Source of the DNA: an uncultured Candidatus Saccharibacteria bacterium
GTDB lineage: Bacteria; Patescibacteriota; Minisyncoccia; Phycocordibacterales; G965230995
Direction: 5' to 3'
Assembly (NCBI GenBank): GCA_965230995.1
Contig: OZ246398.1
Coordinates: 211,768-275,767, forward strand
Length of the DNA: 64,000 nt
Shown here: one piece after another, positions 10,675 to 34,248 of the stretch
Layout of the letters: every line of letters starts with the position of its first letter
Position numbering within the stretch: position 1 is the first letter of the stretch
Notes under the pieces: model-generated
What the model was told of the DNA's origin: nothing
Database searches by the model: none
Seen by the model: only the letters and a program-made list of their open reading frames with translations
Made by a program: the position numbers and the translations under genes

Positions 10675-10767
10675 GTCTTTCTTTTTGTTTTTCAATATGG
10701 TATAAAGTTTAACTGTAATATGTTTATAACCAAGCAGGGTAGAGGATAACAATAAACATAAAAATAT

Positions 10768-10840
10768 GCGCCCATAGCTCAGTCGGTAGAGCAGTTGCCT
10801 TTTAAGCAAACGGTCGTAGGTTCGATTCCTACTGGGCGCA
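10768..10840 (+). tRNA. tRNA-Lys (anticodon UUU)
   Basis: Folded by hand: acceptor GCGCCCA/TGGGCGC, D-arm GCTC-AGTCGGTA-GAGC, anticodon loop CTTTTAA, T-arm GTAGG-TTCGATT-CCTAC, discriminator A. No encoded CCA. Confidence 0.85.
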
Positions 10841-10841
10841 C

Positions 10842-10872
10842 AAAATTAAAAGCCGAAAGGCTTTTTAATTTT
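10842..10872 (+). terminator. Long hairpin (about 13-bp stem, GAAA loop) plus T-run directly 3' of tRNA-Lys
   Basis: aaaattaaaagcc-gaaa-ggctttttaatttt. Confidence 0.4.
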
Positions 10873-11009
10873 GTGCGCCCAAGCAAGTCCGGGGGACTTG
10901 CGTGTAGGAATCGAAGCCCGATTGAGTATAATTACGAGTCCGTTTAGGACGAAGTAATTATCCAATCGGGGTACTGACCCTGTAAGGGTCGATTCCTCCT
11001 CTGCGCACA
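10873..11009 (+). repeat. A-type tRNA-linked structured element. Its 5' arm is the complement of the tRNA-Lys 3' end, followed by a conserved nested-stem core, then a near-copy of the tRNA-Lys 3' end.
   Basis: 5' part GTGCGCCCA-(hairpin)-GTGTAGGAATCGAA is the reverse complement of the tRNA 3' end. Core GAAGCCCGATTGAG..ATAATTACGAGTCCGTTTAGGACGAAGTAATTATCCAATCGGGGTACTGA is shared with 26868..27042 and partly with 30112..30271. 3' end GGGTCGATTCCTCCTCTGCGCACA resembles the tRNA-Lys 3' end. Confidence 0.5.
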
Positions 11010-11066
11010 TCGCAACAATAGAAAAACACCTCTGATTTTCAAGGTGTTTTTCTTTTGCGATGTGCG

Positions 11067-11231
11067 AGCCGGACTGAAGCGGAGCGGAGGGAGGCGGGGT
11101 CGCGACTTCGTCTTGAGTTCACGAAAGACGAAAGTTGTGACCACAAAATTAATAACAAAAGGTACACTGTCCATGTAATGGAAGATTCCTACTGCTGAAC
11201 TTTTTTAAGTGACCCCGTAAGGCTCGATTCC
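11067..11231 (+). repeat. B-type G-rich module plus two further degenerate tRNA-Lys T-arm/3' copies
   Basis: GCCGGACTGAAGCGGAGCGGAGGGAGGCGGGGTCGCGA motif shared with 27090..27316 and 25391..25514. Partial tRNA 3' copies GATTCCTACTG (about 11184) and GGCTCGATTCC (about 11221). Confidence 0.4.
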
Positions 11232-11235
11232 TTTT

Positions 11236-11670
11236 TTGACTTTTAATAAAAAATATTGCAACATTATACCGTCATCGGTTTTTAAAGCTGTTGACCTCGG
11301 TGGTATTGTGCCACTGAGAACTGTACCTTTGAGGTGTTTTATGGCTTTGCTTTGTGATGAAACTGGGAAAGACATTCGTTTTGGAGGTGTTCTCATGGCA
11401 GCTAAGCGCCGTGAGGAAACCACCTACTACGCACTGAGTGGCGAGGCGATCAATCGAATTCCGGTGTCCGAACGGCGCAATACCCCATGCCGTAAGGGGG
11501 AGTTGGGCGTGGACATCTATGAAGCAAGTTCCTCCTGCGGCTACAACGGAAGCTATACCCTGAGCGACTTTACTATGGGGGAGTTCAGCTTCTCCATCTC
11601 GAGACAGGTCGCCCAGAAGTACTTGCCGAATCACTACTCGCACTACCCGCCGGCTCAACGCAGGTCGTGA
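11236..11670 (+). CDS. Hypothetical protein in a GC-rich, apparently foreign segment. The likely true start is the internal ATG near 11395 (MAAKRREETTYYALSGE...).
   Basis: Clear switch to GC-rich, GC3-rich codons from about 11290. Long ORFs on both strands, as expected for GC-rich DNA. Function unknown. Confidence 0.3.
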   Translation: MTFNKKYCNIIPSSVFKAVDLGGIVPLRTVPLRCFMALLCDETGKDIRFGGVLMAAKRREETTYYALSGEAINRIPVSERRNTPCRKGELGVDIYEASSSCGYNGSYTLSDFTMGEFSFSISRQVAQKYLPNHYSHYPPAQRRS

Positions 11671-11777
11671 ACAGAGCTCGTGTGATCATCATCGAACCCC
11701 TCGCAGACTCACAATCTGTTAGGGGCTCTTTCTTTACCATCCTTGCTACTTTCTTCTCATTTTTATAGGATAACTTA

Positions 11778-12158
11778 ATGGAAAAAACTAAAGGGGAAAA
11801 TGGACGTGTTATTGCTTTTGATTTTGACGGCGTAATTGCAAGATATGAAGGCTTTGTTTCTGGTGAGCATACAAACGAACCAATAGAAGAAGTTAGAGAG
11901 GCGATAAGACTATTAAAAGAAAATAATTATCGCATACTGATACATTCAACTAGGGGAGATGAGGTTGTTAGAAAGTATTGTGTTGAACACTCGATACCTT
12001 TTGATTTTATAAACAGAAGGGATGATAAATTTGGCGATAATCCAGGAAAACCAATAGCTTTTGTTTATGTTGATGATCGAGCGATTTGTTATCGAGGTCA
12101 AAAAGCCAGCGAATTAGTAAAAGAGATAGAAAACTTTAAGGCACATTGGGAGAAATAA
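11778..12158 (+). CDS. Small HAD-superfamily-like phosphatase or hydrolase
   Basis: N-terminal FDFDGVI resembles HAD motif I (DxDG). Only 126 aa. Confidence 0.45.
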   Translation: MEKTKGENGRVIAFDFDGVIARYEGFVSGEHTNEPIEEVREAIRLLKENNYRILIHSTRGDEVVRKYCVEHSIPFDFINRRDDKFGDNPGKPIAFVYVDDRAICYRGQKASELVKEIENFKAHWEK

Positions 12159-14443: not shown

Positions 14444-14595
14444 ATTTTGATGCTAGCAAAAAAGGCCAGATAAAGCCATTGTGATTTTGTTTAGTATAAA
14501 TAGTTGACATAGCCTAGATAAAGGCGTATAATATATAGAGATAGTCAAAAGCACCTTTAAATAAGGATTTGCGAAAAATCTCAAACACAGATCAA

Positions 14596-14653
14596 GTAGC
14601 CACAGCTTTTTGTGTCTAATGTCCAAAATATGGACACAAAAAGCTGTGGCTAC
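14596..14653. promoter_or_regulatory. Perfect 21-bp inverted repeat with a 16-nt spacer, in the divergent region between fpg and a GC-rich ORF
   Basis: GTAGCCACAGCTTTTTGTGTC ... GACACAAAAAGCTGTGGCTAC. The spacer holds a second small palindrome, TGTCCA..TGGACA. Confidence 0.4.
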
Positions 14654-14715
14654 CATGTCGGTAGGCCAAGCGTAACATGCTATCCACAAGATAGCGCAAC
14701 ATAGGGGTAACCCTT

Positions 14716-21440: not shown

Positions 21441-21562
21441 TTTTTCTGAGTATTTTTTCTGAATACCTATGTTGCTATGCCTGAATATGTTGGTATCAAG
21501 TTCTTGTTGGGGTACGCGAGATTTGAATCCACAGGGACGTCCTTTTTAGGTTCTGTATAGTG

Positions 21563-22086: not shown

Positions 22087-22818
22087 ATGAGATATATCGG
22101 AATAGATTTTGGTTCAAAGAGAATTGGTATCGCTGTTGGGGATAGTGAAAACAACGTAGCATTTCCAAAATGTGTTGTTCTAAATGACAAAGAAACTATT
22201 CTTGCTATCAAAAAAATAATCACAGAAGAAAAAATTGGGGAGATAGTAATTGGCGAATCAAAAAATCTCGACGGAAGTGACAATCCGATAATGAAAAAGA
22301 TTAAAGTCTTTGTGGAGGAAATTAAAAAAGAAACAAATTTGCCAATCCATTTTGAGCCAGAATTTTTTTCTTCAAAACAAGCTTCGCAGATTCAAGGGGA
22401 AAATGAAATGCTCGATGCATCATCGGCATCGATAATTTTAGGAAGTTATTTAAACAAATTAAAACATAAAGAATCAAAAAAAGAGATGGAAAAAATTACA
22501 ATTGATGATTTTGCAAAAGTAGAGATCAGGGCAGGAAGAATAATTTCTGCAGAAAAAATAGAGGGAAGCGACAAACTTTTGAAATTGTCTGTTGATTTTG
22601 GTGAAGAAAAACCTCGTCAGGTTTTGTCGGGGATAGCAAAATATTTTCCAGAAGGCGAAGGACTTGCAAATAAACTTTGTGCCTTTGTTACCAATTTGCC
22701 ACCAAGAGAAATGATGGGCCTTCTGAGCGAAGCGATGATTCTCGGTTTCAATACTGAAGATAATTTTTCTCTAATGAACGTTAGCGAAACGATACCAGCT
22801 GGTACAAAAGCAAAATAG
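22087..22818 (+). CDS. RuvX/YqgF-like putative pre-16S rRNA nuclease fused to a C-terminal tRNA-binding (Myf/CsaA-like) domain
   Basis: N-terminus MRYIGIDFGSKRIGIAVGD is YqgF-like. The C-terminal 100 aa resemble the tRNA-binding domain found at the MetG C-terminus and in CsaA. Confidence 0.7.
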   Translation: MRYIGIDFGSKRIGIAVGDSENNVAFPKCVVLNDKETILAIKKIITEEKIGEIVIGESKNLDGSDNPIMKKIKVFVEEIKKETNLPIHFEPEFFSSKQASQIQGENEMLDASSASIILGSYLNKLKHKESKKEMEKITIDDFAKVEIRAGRIISAEKIEGSDKLLKLSVDFGEEKPRQVLSGIAKYFPEGEGLANKLCAFVTNLPPREMMGLLSEAMILGFNTEDNFSLMNVSETIPAGTKAK

Positions 22819-25372: not shown

Positions 25373-25390
25373 CAATTGCGAAGCAATTTT

Positions 25391-25514
25391 ACGAACAGGT
25401 TGGAATCGAACCGTAGGAGGGGGTCGGGGAACCTGGGGTTTCCCGTGGAGGAAGGATTGGGAAAACCGTGGGTTTCCCAGGAGTTCGAAGCGAAGCGTCC
25501 AACCGAGAGGACAA
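25391..25514 (+). repeat. tRNA-Arg-linked element. 5' arm GGTTGGAATCGAACC is the complement of the tRNA-Arg T-arm. G-rich core related to the B-type module. 3' end copies the last 17 nt of tRNA-Arg.
   Basis: GTAGGAGGGGGTCGGGGAACC matches the GAGG.GGGGTCG.G motif. GAAGCGAAGCG repeat. TCCAACCGAGAGGACAA is identical to the tRNA 3' end. Preceded by hairpin CAATTGCGAAGCAATTTT. Confidence 0.4.
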
Positions 25515-26867: not shown

Positions 26868-27042
26868 CCTAGAAAGCTCCTGGGGAGCTTTCGTCCAGGA
26901 CTCGAAGCCCGATTGAGCGACATTGTTTGATTTATCAGACAAGAAGTACTCTTGTGGTGCATAATTACGAGTCCGTTTAGGACGAAGTAATTATCTAATC
27001 GGGGTACTGAACATGTAATGTTCGAGTCCTGTATCGCCCACA
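26868..27042 (+). repeat. A-type tRNA-linked element (tRNA-Val copy)
   Basis: Hairpin GAAAGCTCC-TGG-GGAGCTTTC. CAGGACTCGAA is the complement of the tRNA-Val T-loop and T-stem. The conserved core is identical to the tRNA-Lys copy over ATAATTACGAGTCCGTTTAGGACGAAGTAATTATC. The last 22 nt, TTCGAGTCCTGTATCGCCCACA, are identical to the tRNA-Val 3' end. Confidence 0.5.
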
Positions 27043-27089
27043 ATTACAAAATCCACCCACAAGGGTGTGATTTTGTTTGTGGGCGATAC

Positions 27090-27316
27090 ATGGCGAGAAG
27101 GCCGGAACCGCACGGAGCGAAGCGGAGTCTGAATTCTTTTTTGCTAAAAAGAATTCAGAAGTGAGGCGGGGTCGCGAACACTTAGTCCGCGCAATATTAC
27201 GAAGTAATATGAGCAGACTTAGTGATTCGTGACCGAGTCCTGGAACATATCGAGCGAACGAGCTTTTTATGAGCCCTTAGACGAAGTAAAAAACCACGAG
27301 AGTGACCGAGTCCCTT
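27090..27316 (+). repeat. B-type G-rich module with an inserted 14-bp-stem hairpin and two degenerate T-arm copies (GTGACCGAGTCC twice)
   Basis: GCCGGAACCGCACGGAGCGAAGCGGAG ... GAGGCGGGGTCGCGA is shared with 11067..11231. Confidence 0.4.
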
Positions 27317-30111: not shown

Positions 30112-30271
30112 CAAACGAATGAAATGAGTATGGGCACAGGAGGTCCAGCTCTTTTGTCTTAAAAGAGCGTTGGACGGATTTGAAGCTGTTGTGAGATAGA
30201 TTGCGAGGAACGAAGCAATATATCCACAACGGGTACTGAACATGTAATGTTCAAGTCCTCTCCTGGGCACA
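30112..30271 (+). repeat. A-type tRNA-linked element (tRNA-Leu copy) with covarying stems
   Basis: GGGTACTGAACATGTAATGT is identical to the tRNA-Val copy. 3' end TTCAAGTCCTCTCCTGGGCACA is identical to the tRNA-Leu 3' end over 22 nt. Core stem A is CTGTTGTG/CACAACGG where the others have CCCGATTG/CAATCGGG. Core stem B is TAGATTGC/GCAATATA where the others have ATAATTAC/GTAATTAT. Confidence 0.5.
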
Positions 30272-32118: not shown

Positions 32119-34248
32119 ATGGGTCTTCCACGCGAACGGCATGTGGATGGGCTGAGAGCGGTCGCCGTAATAGACGTCATTCTCGCTCATCTGAAGCTCC
32201 TTCTCGGAGCTTTCATCGGTGTCGATGTGTTTTTTGTCATCTCAGGGTATGTCATCACCAAAATTGGGAGACATACCATTGGGAAGAAAGACGAGCACGG
32301 CAGGGATATGTTTACAATTCCTGGTTTCTACAACCGGCGTGTAAAGAGAATCCTTCCTGCTGCGTTGGTGTGTCTAGCTGTAACCGTAATCGCTGGGTAC
32401 TTCTTCATCGGGCCAAGCGATTACAAAGAGACAGGAGAAGGAGCACTTGCGGCTACCTTGATGGCTGGAAACATCCATGAGGGACAGCTACCGATTGGGT
32501 ACTTTGACCACGACTTTCAGGCGAGACCAGTCAACCACTTTTGGAGTCTGGGTGGGGAAGAACAGTTTTACCTGATCTTTCCAATGGCCCTTATGCTCCT
32601 CTTGAGGTTTTGTCCAAAGAAAGCACCTGTGGTCCTTGTACTGATTGGACTGGGTCTTCTGTGCTGGAGCGGGTACTCGGTACTTGCATTCAAGGTGTGG
32701 AGGTTCTATTGCCCTGCAAACAGGGCATGGGAACTGATTGCTGGTGCGTTGCTAGCTTTCCCGCCGATTGGTGTCAAAACCAAGATGGGGGGAAAGATAG
32801 TGATTGTTTTGGTGGGGGTGTCTCTCGTTCTGACTGTCGGCGGAGTCCTGCAGGGTATGTTCCTGTTCGTAATTTCCGCCGTGCTTATGCTCGGGACTGG
32901 TGCTTTAGTCTTGTATCGTCCGGAGAATCCGACACGGTGGCAAGGCGAGGTACTTAGCCTGATTGGTATGGCACTCATCGTGACCGGTTGTGTCGTCTTC
33001 GATCGAGAAACTCTGTTTCCAGGCTTTCTGGCTCTCGTGCCAGTACTGGGAGCAATGCTCGTAATTGTGGGCGCTTCAAACAAGGAGGTACTCCTGAATC
33101 GCCTGCTATTGGCTAAACCAGTATTGTACATCGGGGCAATATCGTTCTCGGTCTACCTCTGGCACTGGCCGATAATCGTCTACACCGACTTCTACTCGCC
33201 GATACCTCTCGGTCTGTGGCACAAGTTGGTGTTGATAGCGGTCACTCTTGCGGTCGCTAGTGTGAGCTACCACTTCATAGAGAAACCGTTCCAGGAAAGC
33301 AAGGCAAAGAAAGAGTCTGTGTTCTTCGCAGGCCTTATTGCTGTGCTAACTGTGTACGCCGTAGCTCTTTTGGTGGTAGACAAGAACGGTTGGCCGGAAA
33401 GATTCGGGAAGCTGGCAACGCCAGTTGTGCTGAATACTTCCGGTATCGAAATCAACGACAGCCTCGGCAAAGACGGGACATGGCTGAAACAAAAAGGCCT
33501 GCCTGTCATCGGGGACGTCAAAACAACCCCAACATTCCTTCTTGCTGGAGATTCACACGTCAACGCGTTTGTGGAGATCTTCGACAAGTTGGGAAAGGAG
33601 AAAGAAGTTTCCGGATTTGTGTCGTTTAGGTCGGGCAGTTTACCGGTTCCCGGTATATGGACCACCCGAGAGAACGACACGCCGGAAAGCTTTATGGGCT
33701 ACAACCGAGCACTCGAGCAATTCGTGCACGAGAGAAATCTCAAGCATGTATTTCTCGTTGGCAGGTGGAGCAATGCCGTAGTTGGCGATATGCTCGTATC
33801 CGAAGACCCAACGAGGAAAGAGGTAGAAAAAGAGCTGTCTGCAAGGACGCTCGAAAAAAACCTCTTTGCTCTGGTTGCGAGGCTCAAGGCTTCGGGTGTG
33901 GATGTTGTGATCGTACAACAGCTACCAGAACACCCGTTCCACGCCTACAAGAAACTGGTAGCGAGAAGGGGTCGCTTGAAAGGTGTGAGCCGAGAAGCCT
34001 ACCTTTCAAAGCAGGGGACAACGATTGATATGATCCTTCGCTCCGGCGCAAGGACTGTCGATCTATCCTCGCTCCTCTTTGAGGGGGACTGTGTGAGACT
34101 CATTGATCCCAAAGGCTATCCGATATGGTGGGACTATGACCACATCGGTGGTAGAGAGATCACGAGAATTGCTGGTCCTACGTTCGAGACGTTCTTTAAA
34201 GAAATCGCAAACCAAAAAGGAGACTTTGCGATGAACAAAAGGGAGTGA
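32119..34248 (+). CDS. Acyltransferase family 3 membrane protein fused to a C-terminal SGNH hydrolase domain (OatA/OafA-like O-acetyltransferase). GC-rich, apparently horizontally acquired.
   Basis: N-terminal DGLRAVAV...GVDVFFVISGYVIT acyltransferase-3 signature and about 10 TM helices. C-terminal domain of about 250 aa. Many overlapping alternative-frame ORFs are typical of GC-rich DNA. Confidence 0.7.
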   Translation: MGLPRERHVDGLRAVAVIDVILAHLKLLLGAFIGVDVFFVISGYVITKIGRHTIGKKDEHGRDMFTIPGFYNRRVKRILPAALVCLAVTVIAGYFFIGPSDYKETGEGALAATLMAGNIHEGQLPIGYFDHDFQARPVNHFWSLGGEEQFYLIFPMALMLLLRFCPKKAPVVLVLIGLGLLCWSGYSVLAFKVWRFYCPANRAWELIAGALLAFPPIGVKTKMGGKIVIVLVGVSLVLTVGGVLQGMFLFVISAVLMLGTGALVLYRPENPTRWQGEVLSLIGMALIVTGCVVFDRETLFPGFLALVPVLGAMLVIVGASNKEVLLNRLLLAKPVLYIGAISFSVYLWHWPIIVYTDFYSPIPLGLWHKLVLIAVTLAVASVSYHFIEKPFQESKAKKESVFFAGLIAVLTVYAVALLVVDKNGWPERFGKLATPVVLNTSGIEINDSLGKDGTWLKQKGLPVIGDVKTTPTFLLAGDSHVNAFVEIFDKLGKEKEVSGFVSFRSGSLPVPGIWTTRENDTPESFMGYNRALEQFVHERNLKHVFLVGRWSNAVVGDMLVSEDPTRKEVEKELSARTLEKNLFALVARLKASGVDVVIVQQLPEHPFHAYKKLVARRGRLKGVSREAYLSKQGTTIDMILRSGARTVDLSSLLFEGDCVRLIDPKGYPIWWDYDHIGGREITRIAGPTFETFFKEIANQKGDFAMNKRE

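Follow-up and report, generated by a model that had tools for sequence, protein, structure and literature searches.

The segment downstream of the tRNA-Lys(UUU) gene in the 64-kb window studied here (the whole stretch of DNA that was analysed, from contig OZ246398.1) appears to be a stack of elements that belong to a large family of the candidate phyla radiation (CPR)/Patescibacteria, one that seems not to have been described before. Each element combines a 5' arm complementary to the 3' end of the adjacent tRNA, a core and a 3' tail that copies the same tRNA end. The RNA fold of these elements is under selection on the tRNA strand. We have filed the family as new, under the name tRNA-flank structured RNA elements.

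The window is part of an AT-rich bacterial chromosome of ~37% GC that carries the usual CPR housekeeping genes. Its tRNA-Lys gene does not encode CCA; the discriminator A is followed by CA. Behind the gene stands a terminator-like hairpin with a 13-bp stem, a single bulge and a GAAA loop, and then the 137-nt element that an earlier note on this DNA had described. The hairpin, split arm, nested core, GUA-loop hairpin and tail named in that note were all found where it had placed them (Table 1). Arm 1 covers the acceptor 3' strand, the discriminator and one base more in reverse complement. Arm 2, which forms the 5' strand of helix P3, does the same for the T-loop and the T-stem 3' strand (tRNA positions 54-65). 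The P2 hairpin separates the two arms, and GGG-loop hairpins occur at the same position in many copies. When joined, arms 1 and 2 match the last 21 nt of tRNA-Lys, TTCGATTCCTACTGGGCGCAC, exactly in reverse complement, in agreement with the proposed complementarity to the tRNA 3' end. The tRNA 3' end, the terminator-like hairpin and arm 1 together make up one long palindrome. The A-type core is a three-way junction composed, in order, of the junction GAAG, the long stem A, the junction GGGUACUGA and hairpin B with the loop UGUAA; stem A contains a bulged A and an apical GAG-hairpin-CGAA motif. Tail 1, seen in the note as a close copy of the tRNA-Lys 3' end, is identical to it at 18 of 22 positions and pairs with the arms. 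The fold of the whole element (10873-11009) reached -66.7 kcal/mol (z = -7.6), and none of 200 shuffled sequences was equally stable.

Further modules follow. The 3' end of the first element had been described as one arm of a hairpin with downstream sequence, and this pairing is present: GCGCACATCGCAA pairs with TTGCGATGTGCG (11055-11066), enclosing a further hairpin. TTGCGATGTGCG is also the 12-nt arm of a B-type element and complements the end of tail 1 and its trailer. The second G-rich module and the two decayed T-arm copies of the earlier note were recovered as well (11091-11105, 11183-11194 and 11209-11231). The G-rich module, GAGGCGGGGTCGCGA, reappears at 27163. Tail 2 is a T-arm remnant with an 11-nt match to the T-loop/T-stem of tRNA-Lys, and the covariance model of the A-type core, R1, gave a weak match (11096-11189) that reaches into this decayed stretch.

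Table 1. Features of the tRNA-Lys array, other elements of the window and three cores beside tRNA-Glu in related loci (L numbers), with positions in the window unless a locus is named.
Feature	Position	Strand	Evidence or composition
tRNA-Lys(UUU) gene	10768..10841	+	ARAGORN; Rfam RF00005 74.7 bits
Terminator-like hairpin, AAAATTAAAAGCC-GAAA-GGCTTTTTAATTTT	10842..10872	+	
Arm 1, GTGCGCCCA	10873..10881	+	read from sequence
P2 hairpin, GCAAGTCC-GGG-GGACTTGC	10883..10901	+	folding
Arm 2 (5' strand of helix P3), GTAGGAATCGAA	10904..10915	+	
A-type core	10916..10990	+	fold, covariation; R1 match 10907-10996, 82.4 bits
Tail 1, copy of tRNA-Lys T-loop to 3' end	10988..11009	+	
Second hairpin, GAAAAACACC...GGTGTTTTTC and T-run	11010..11066	+	
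B-type core, AGCCGGA...GAGGCGGGGUCGCGA-hairpin-UUGUGACC	11067..11142	+	
Decayed A-type 3' junction GGTACACTG, TGTAA-loop hairpin, tail 2 AGATTCCTACTG	11161..11194	+	
Third remnant: GTGACC, CCGTAAGG, T-loop copy CTCGATTCC	11209..11231	+	
C-type element after tRNA-Arg(UCU)	25374..25513	+	arm GGTTGGAATCGAACC 25398-25412; G-rich core 25413-25498; tail CCAACCGAGAGGACA 25499-25513
A-type element after tRNA-Val(UAC)	26872..27042	+	P2 26872-26892; arm 26895-26906; core 26907-27020; tail 27021-27042; R1 match 26962-27029, 31.3 bits
B-type element in Val array	27078..27243	+	arm TGTGGGCGATAC; core 27090-27234; tail GAGTCCTGG from T-loop position 57
A-type element between tRNA-Leu(GAG) and tRNA-His	30131..30271	+	arm 1 30131-30143; P2 30144-30174; arm 2 30175-30184; core 30185-30249; tail 30250-30271; R1 match 30176-30258, 85.7 bits (E = 2e-23)
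tRNA-Glu-associated B-/A'-type core, L011	5483-5610	-	
tRNA-Glu-associated B-/A'-type core, L110	2165-2291	-	
tRNA-Glu-associated B-/A'-type core, L012	5595-5666	+	

Recurrence of the elements within the window is far beyond chance, with zero matches expected in shuffles for the core motifs of 20-21 nt. Four of the seven window tRNAs bear an element. The earlier note had reported the same architecture at three other tRNAs. This holds for the A core after tRNA-Val and tRNA-Leu, whereas the core after tRNA-Arg(UCU) is a third type that follows an identical arm and tail logic (25398-25513). The Arg arm is the reverse complement of the entire T-arm, and the Arg tail runs from the T-stem 3' strand to the end of the tRNA. 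The Val A core contains a 42-nt insertion in stem A, and the Val array has an additional remnant at 27298-27314. The tails after tRNA-Val and tRNA-Leu are exact 23-nt copies of the respective tRNA ends when the preceding G (27020 and 30249) is included. CCA is encoded by none of the seven tRNA genes, and CA follows the discriminator; related loci have CA, CCA or CCG at this place, and the tails copy whichever stands there.

Two other sequences of the window were noted. Downstream of tRNA-Ser(UGA), at ~21505-21535 on the minus strand, gtggattcaaatctcgcgtacccca resembles a fragment of the T-arm and 3' end of another tRNA, and it may be the relic of a lost element or of a rearrangement. A long palindrome at 14572-14667 (GTAGCCACAGCTTTTTGTGTC...) gave weak R1 matches on both strands (16.8 and 13.1 bits) and is probably an unrelated hairpin.

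To survey the family beyond the window, we scanned a species-representative genome collection with a seed pattern of 27 positions taken from the 3' part of the core and the T-loop. At least 116 loci were found, nearly all in metagenome-assembled genomes (MAGs) of Patescibacteria; hosts among the matches listed were Paceibacterota/Parcubacteria and Taylor-, Kaiser-, Nomura- and Zambryskiibacteria. The pattern and the covariance model together yielded more than 170 further copies in Patescibacteria MAGs, nearly all of them located 30-250 nt behind a same-strand tRNA of whatever isotype and equipped with a tail that fits this tRNA. A same-strand tRNA was located within 600 nt upstream for 104 of 125 pattern matches, mostly 85-150 nt away, and the matches without an upstream tRNA were mostly at locus edges. 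In most matches, the 22 nt past the core were identical at 20-22 positions to the T-loop-to-3'-end segment of the adjacent tRNA. These tRNAs cover 15 isotypes (Ser, Leu, Arg, Val, Gly, Glu, Gln, Ile, Lys, Tyr, His, Cys, Pro, Met and Asp). R1 matched 131 times in the first 100 loci and 43 times in 46 additional loci. Twenty-nine of the 131 matches are not covered by the seed pattern; they constitute a sister type, A', and nearly all of them have a same-strand tRNA 30-250 nt upstream. The covariance-model search suggested in the earlier note, which asked whether matches adjoin a tRNA and whether their arms track it, was positive.

We also used a seed that is independent of the element. Most matches of a metagenome scan with the tRNA-Leu 3' end came from non-CPR bacteria, in which no element was present, and 17 were low-GC CPR-like loci. 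In these loci, chosen via tRNA sequence, R1 matched at 20 of 40 tRNAs. Viral contigs scanned with the element pattern gave no match, and hence no sign of a phage origin. A match in Lutispora was rejected as a chance occurrence inside unrelated sequence. A contig labelled Nostocoides (L046, JBAOHM010000018.1), which gave the one actinobacterial match, was likewise rejected as an occurrence outside the CPR, being chimeric: its GC content drops from 0.69 to 0.33 along 8 kb, and the element is on the low-GC, CPR-like end. At the gathering threshold, Rfam detected only tRNAs in the entire window. RF00005 (29-bit gathering threshold) found the seven genuine tRNAs only, with no match on 10873-11231 even at E up to 10. 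Over 10700-11800, Rfam 15 searched at E<=10 returned chance hairpin-type matches only, and no Rfam 15 family was found, including hammerhead, twister, hatchet, pistol, hairpin, HDV, group I/II introns, tmRNA, Y-RNA-like, HEARO and IS605-orfB. The literature searched held no description of these elements, and the only related work concerns the group I introns of Patescibacteria (PMC13011429).

How closely the arms and tails follow the adjacent tRNA was examined in the 400-nt flanks of 177 tRNAs. Downstream of 101 of these there is a direct copy of the tRNA 3' part, which starts sharply at T54 and runs through the gene end or beyond. An inverted copy was found downstream of 68, mainly of positions 54-65, and copies of the tRNA 5' part were found upstream of 17. 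The copies take in genomic bases past the discriminator (CA, CCG and at times the trailer and terminator) and therefore come from the gene or the precursor and not from the mature tRNA. The point at which the tail starts depends on the core, namely position 54/55 for A, 57 for B and ~59-61 for C. The 5' arm is the Watson-Crick reverse complement of the T-loop, the T-stem 3' strand and often the acceptor 3' strand. At the 61 sites where tail and tRNA differ, the arm complements the tRNA at 50 and its own tail at 7, counts that are partly due to recombination chimeras. Even with this share of chimeras, the comparison ties the arm to the upstream tRNA. In many loci (window Lys, L077, L095, L107, L089 and L048) the arm abuts the terminator hairpin, and a long palindrome then runs from the tRNA 3' end across the terminator into the arm. 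We considered whether the arms could be relics of the tRNA's own 5' strands and rejected this, since the arm complements the 3' strand even opposite G-U pairs; in tRNA-Val, the arm has C against the G of the T50-G64 pair. Arms also complement the T-loop, the discriminator and the trailer.

Selection on the RNA fold was assessed on an alignment of 76 copies (A1), with a curated structure comprising stem A, hairpin B and P3, the closing helix that the arm forms with the T-loop copy. Standard pairs occupied 95.7% of cells compared to 78.4% in shuffles, and double-sided changes were found in 331 cells compared to 83. When the partners were moved by 1-3 columns as a control, pairing was only 27-56%. 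Stem A is rich in G-U and poor in A-C; one of its pairs is GU in 36, GC in 24 and UA in 10 of the 76 copies. In contrast to stem A, which tolerates wobble, P3 is nearly all Watson-Crick, with 7 G-U in ~456 cells. In the B core, the 3' domain combines invariant G-U pairs with pairs that covary. That GGUACUGA and UGUAA do not vary in A1 is in part an effect of the seed pattern, and the covariance-model matches show the true variation. Covarying stems and common G-U pairs together indicate that the fold is selected, and the frequency of G-U alongside the rarity of A-C places the selected pairing on the tRNA sense strand.

The arms, P2 and tail form a common scaffold for at least three families of core (A/A', B and C). 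The earlier note had seen a two-module array behind tRNA-Lys; the modules are real and can now be assigned to these interchangeable families. In A and A', a long stem and a YGUAR-loop hairpin meet at a three-way junction, GAAR / GUACYGA; A' keeps the junction GAAR ... GUACYGA and the loop YGUAR and has a different stem A. The B core follows the scheme GCCGGAG..GGGGUCGCGA-hairpin-UUGUGACC, and its fuller layout, AGCCGGAG-hairpin-CGAGGCGGGGUCGCGA-hairpin-UUGUGACC, is present in at least 25 loci. Arms of the same kind accompany the B cores, together with a tail that begins at T-loop position 57 (L101, L174 and L126). The C core is a separate G-rich core. The version found after tRNA-Arg in the window reappears after tRNA-His in L099, with arm and tail altered to match tRNA-His. 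The GAG-hairpin-CGAA motif occurs at the apex of stem A, in the interior of the B core and in a leader, GAACGAAGUGA, between many tRNAs and arm 1.

A mirror of this 3' arrangement was seen at tRNA-Glu, where B-/A'-type cores have a 5' fragment of a partial or pseudo tRNA-Glu on one side and an intact tRNA-Glu on the other (Table 1). The core in L011 is within the D-loop of a pseudo-copy of tRNA-Glu. The upstream 5'-part copies of the flank survey accord with these cores beside partial copies of tRNA-Glu.

Comparison between loci shows that the elements are gained, lost, swapped and tandemly duplicated, and that they decay outwards. In the 17 tRNA-Leu loci, an identical tRNA end is followed by A, A', B, A and B, or a terminator alone. 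The last of these, L183 and L221, are the empty sites that the earlier note had proposed to look for. L217 and L134, whose flanks are ~80% identical, have a trailer, terminator, arm and P2 that are nearly base-identical, yet the core is of type A in one of them and of type A' in the other. In the syntenic Arg(UCU)/Val(UAC)/Leu(GAG)/His cluster (compared in the window, L051, L174, L185, L155, L183, L099, L126 and L202), the presence and type of element vary at each tRNA between genomes. Identical tandem copies were found in L069 and L064, and the outer tails of arrays are more decayed (window Lys and L051). When the neighbouring SpoU gene was looked up by exact protein match to find strain variants or empty sites, the sole result was a 3-kb contig with the same sequence as the window.

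Chimeric copies were observed at rearrangement junctions in L026 and L217. These are chimeric or inverted partial copies with inverted repeats several kb apart (L026 1150-1650 and 6850-7350; L217 3500-3990). Their arrangement suggests that recombination between dispersed elements may rearrange the genome.

The tRNA-Val and tRNA-Leu genes have promoter-like sites in front of them and no terminator-like hairpin before the element, and at Val such a hairpin comes after the tail. Element and tRNA share the same strand in all cases. The hairpin that separates tRNA-Lys from its element is a weak one. Judged from these sequence signals, the layout suggests that the elements are co-transcribed with the tRNA or reached by read-through. 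In minimum-free-energy folds of the co-transcript, the arm binds the 3' end of the tRNA itself and the downstream tail becomes the partner of the tRNA 5' acceptor strand, so that two topologically equivalent conformers are possible. In addition, the 5' strand of stem A at tRNA-Lys, CCCGAUUGAG (10917-10926), complements the tRNA-Lys D-arm, CUCAGUCGG (10777-10786), with two G-U pairs, and the minimum-free-energy fold pairs the two. The 3' strand CCAAUYGGGGUAC bears a loose resemblance to a D-arm. This complementarity may be a coincidence or a trace of origin.

By Pfam content, the genes of the window include DNA polymerase I, RuvABC, Mur ligase, ribonucleotide reductase, pilus genes and ribosomal proteins. 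An open reading frame (ORF) at 22087-22818 (+) encodes a RuvX/YqgF nuclease (PF03652) fused to a tRNA-binding domain (PF01588). The best 108 relatives listed all have the same two-domain architecture, and those with a named source come from Paceibacterota, Taylorbacteria, Minisyncoccia and unspecified Patescibacteria. By its domains, this fusion is a possible trans-acting partner for tRNA-linked structures. The 3' side of the Lys array is adjoined by a small ORF (11236-11670, +, likely ATG at 11396) without a Pfam family; its GC content of ~0.45-0.55 against a background of 0.36 gives it a compositionally foreign look. An acyltransferase-3/SGNH gene (32119-34248, +) with a GC content of ~0.5 in this 0.36-GC genome was probably horizontally acquired.

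What are these elements? The reading that we prefer, with about an even chance of being correct, is that the element is selfish and non-autonomous, shares a transcript with the tRNA, accretes at tRNA 3' ends and has its own ends templated on the local tRNA. The element would be transcribed as a tRNA 3' trailer or through read-through, and arm-tail pairing would close it on itself, which would leave the upstream tRNA intact and undisturbed. With each new copy, the local tRNA 3' segment would be copied twice, once inverted and once directly. This copying would most plausibly occur by template switching or recombination at the near-palindromic T-loop (TTCGAA) and the terminator hairpin, with RNA guidance or a dedicated nuclease as other candidates. 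The role of the conserved RNA core would be either to propagate the element or to let it be removed from the precursor without harm. The earlier note had left the choice between an accreting element and a tRNA-linked structured RNA, and the evidence supports both together. Covarying stems, common G-U pairs and the tRNA strand speak for a structured RNA; tandem and nested copies, decayed outer tails and orthologous tRNAs with differing cores or none speak for accretion.

Several results weigh against a selfish element of this kind. A host function would also fit the strong conservation of the junction nucleotides and the presence of elements at about half of the tRNAs of very small genomes, and a template-switch origin alone leaves the interruption of the arm by P2 unexplained. 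Several loci have a good terminator between tRNA and element, so that expression there would require read-through. A Pfam scan of 60 ORFs in the window identified no integrase, transposase, recombinase, reverse transcriptase or TnpB. A search for long ORF-bearing versions with distant 5' halves, a weak test given its imperfect offsets, found nothing convincing. A comparison of core clustering by genome and by tRNA type did not discriminate between the two, with mean identities of 0.69, 0.70 and 0.68.

A tRNA-linked RNA that benefits the host is a rather unlikely rival. In this case the element would be a functional trailer whose tail and antisense arm serve tRNA biology, for example as a platform for 3'-end processing or quality control, as a decoy for nucleases or toxins that act on the T-loop or acceptor end, or as a spare 3' segment able to take the place of the tRNA 3' end in the precursor. 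The selected fold and conserved junction, the occupation of about half of the tRNAs in streamlined genomes and the fact that most tails remain identical to the tRNA are in its favour, as are the two equivalent predicted folds of the co-transcript and the spread of the RuvX nuclease-tRNA-binding fusion in the same lineages. However, orthologous tRNAs have different cores or none, many tRNAs have no element at all, and the outer copies decay. No isotype is treated differently from the others, there is no consistent downstream gene to regulate, and thermodynamic folds of tRNA precursors are unreliable. Less probable still, in our estimate, are programmable RNA machines aimed at tRNA 3' ends, in which the core would be a new small ribozyme or protein scaffold and the arm would capture the segment from T-loop to 3' end. 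The feature of the elements that would fit a new class of self-cleaving ribozyme is the conserved three-way junction. Such a machine could spread into tRNA loci in an RNA-guided or templated manner and without a classical recombinase, or it could exchange or repair damaged tRNA 3' ends from the spare tail. We are more doubtful that the element is a guide RNA for an RNA-guided enzyme, with the core as protein scaffold and the tail or arm as a ~20-nt guide against tRNA 3'-end sequences, used for homing or for defence against elements that integrate into tRNA genes. A scaffold followed by a locus-specific ~22-nt 3' segment, and in some loci then by a terminator-like hairpin, would fit such a role, as would several scaffold families with one logic and a strictly Watson-Crick arm/tail helix. 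Against it, no TnpB, IscB, Cas or IS110-type gene is present among the ORFs of the window, and no match to an Rfam omega-RNA or HEARO-type model was found. The presumed guide would also be sequestered by the perfectly complementary arm, and a guide identical to the tRNA gene would hit self.

Direct repeats from T-loop to 3' end and tandem accretion are classic for integration at tRNA sites. Both are present here, and a GC-rich, foreign-looking ORF stands behind the Lys array. We nevertheless consider it highly improbable that the elements are debris of integrase islands, that is, attL/attR ends of T-loop-integrated islands deleted down to the parts proximal to the attachment (att) site. No integrase was found among the ORFs of the window, and inserts of 85-160 nt share covarying RNA cores over hundreds of genomes and all tRNA isotypes. 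Integrase chemistry does not account for the locus-specific inverted arms, and the element side of the junction is unlike a T-stem half-site. The degraded-attachment-site alternative raised in the earlier note thus gained no support, and no full-length version bearing an integrase was found. A true T-loop intron, in which the tRNA 5' part would be joined to the downstream tail and the element spliced out with the first 3' end, seems just as improbable. Predicted folds do pair the tRNA 5' acceptor strand with the downstream tail, B-/A'-type cores do lie inside partial or pseudo tRNA-Glu copies, and Patescibacteria are rich in tRNA introns (PMC13011429). Yet an intact, high-scoring tRNA is always upstream, decay or truncation affects many of the tails, no group I intron was matched and no split tRNA without an intact copy was found. 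Three further candidates were rejected. Against a hammerhead-like junction, the strands stand in reversed cyclic order, and positions 8/9 are not conserved. For a guide of the box C/D or H/ACA type, the position of P2 relative to the tRNA varies by locus and there is no unpaired target base. An integron attC site does not fit, as the GTTRRRY core is lacking.

If these findings hold, about every second tRNA gene in a major branch of the CPR bears an unannotated structured RNA whose ends are rewritten, in both orientations, to match the neighbouring tRNA 3' end. This would add several new RNA families (A/A', B and C) to genomes in which non-coding RNA is barely annotated, and would account for the partial tRNA copies near tRNA genes and for some rearrangements. 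The puzzle is how an element of 85-160 nt without an enzyme gene acquires a Watson-Crick inverted and a direct copy of each target. Any answer, be it template switching, RNA guidance, a ribozyme or a dedicated tRNA-binding nuclease, bears on the persistence of selfish or regulatory RNAs in extremely reduced genomes and might yield a new programmable RNA scaffold.

Among known systems, the elements resemble tRNA-site islands (tyrosine integrase, prophages), which cross over in the T-loop, in that a T-loop-to-3'-end direct repeat flanks the insert, the tRNA stays intact, and successive inserts stack downstream with the older repeats outermost. Unlike these islands, they are 85-160 nt long and were found with direct repeats but with no integrase or cargo genes, the 60 window ORFs including no recombinase gene. 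They also carry a conserved covarying fold and an inverted copy of the tRNA segment, and a single core family is used at every isotype, its ends fitted to the tRNA in question. The group I tRNA introns of Patescibacteria are likewise structured, ORF-less, patchy and tRNA-associated in the same phylum; they sit in the anticodon loop at 35/36, match a group I model and are self-splicing (PMC13011429). In contrast, the present elements are outside an intact tRNA and much smaller, with a core of ~85 nt and no Rfam model. RF00028, the P3-P9 catalytic core, had no match in the window, and the upstream tRNA is uninterrupted. No archaeal bulge-helix-bulge motif was evident by eye at the junctions, and every element has an intact tRNA beside it.

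In the omega-RNAs of IS200/IS605 TnpB/IscB systems, the 3' guide is the DNA flanking the transposon end. The layout of the elements, with a conserved core followed by a flank-derived 3' segment, would fit this scheme, and omega-RNAs also have non-autonomous copies scattered in genomes. However, the 3' segment of the present elements is paired to the 5' arm, there is no sequence or model similarity, and no nuclease or transposase gene was found with the elements in the window. The arm recalls the primer-binding sites of retroviruses, long terminal repeat retroelements and retrozymes, which are exact complements of a tRNA 3' end over ~18-21 nt. Here the complement instead spans the genomic CA or trailer rather than CCA and reaches the T-loop, a direct copy in cis matches the arm, and no reverse transcriptase was found in the window. 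Like miniature inverted-repeat transposable elements and REPINs, the elements are short, non-coding, multi-copy and intergenic, with inverted ends and rearrangement by recombination between copies. In place of constant terminal inverted repeats and a strand-symmetric palindrome, their terminal inverted sequences differ per locus and equal the neighbouring tRNA, their pairing shows the strand asymmetry of RNA (G-U tolerated, A-C not), and they lie near-exclusively at tRNA 3' flanks on the sense strand. Finally, small RNAs derived from 3' external transcribed spacers of tRNAs, such as 3'ETS-leuZ of E. coli, are likewise functional or at least structured RNAs from a tRNA trailer. Whereas those are short unstructured sponges of a single operon, the elements described here form a modular family that is found at many tRNAs and copies the tRNA 3' end.

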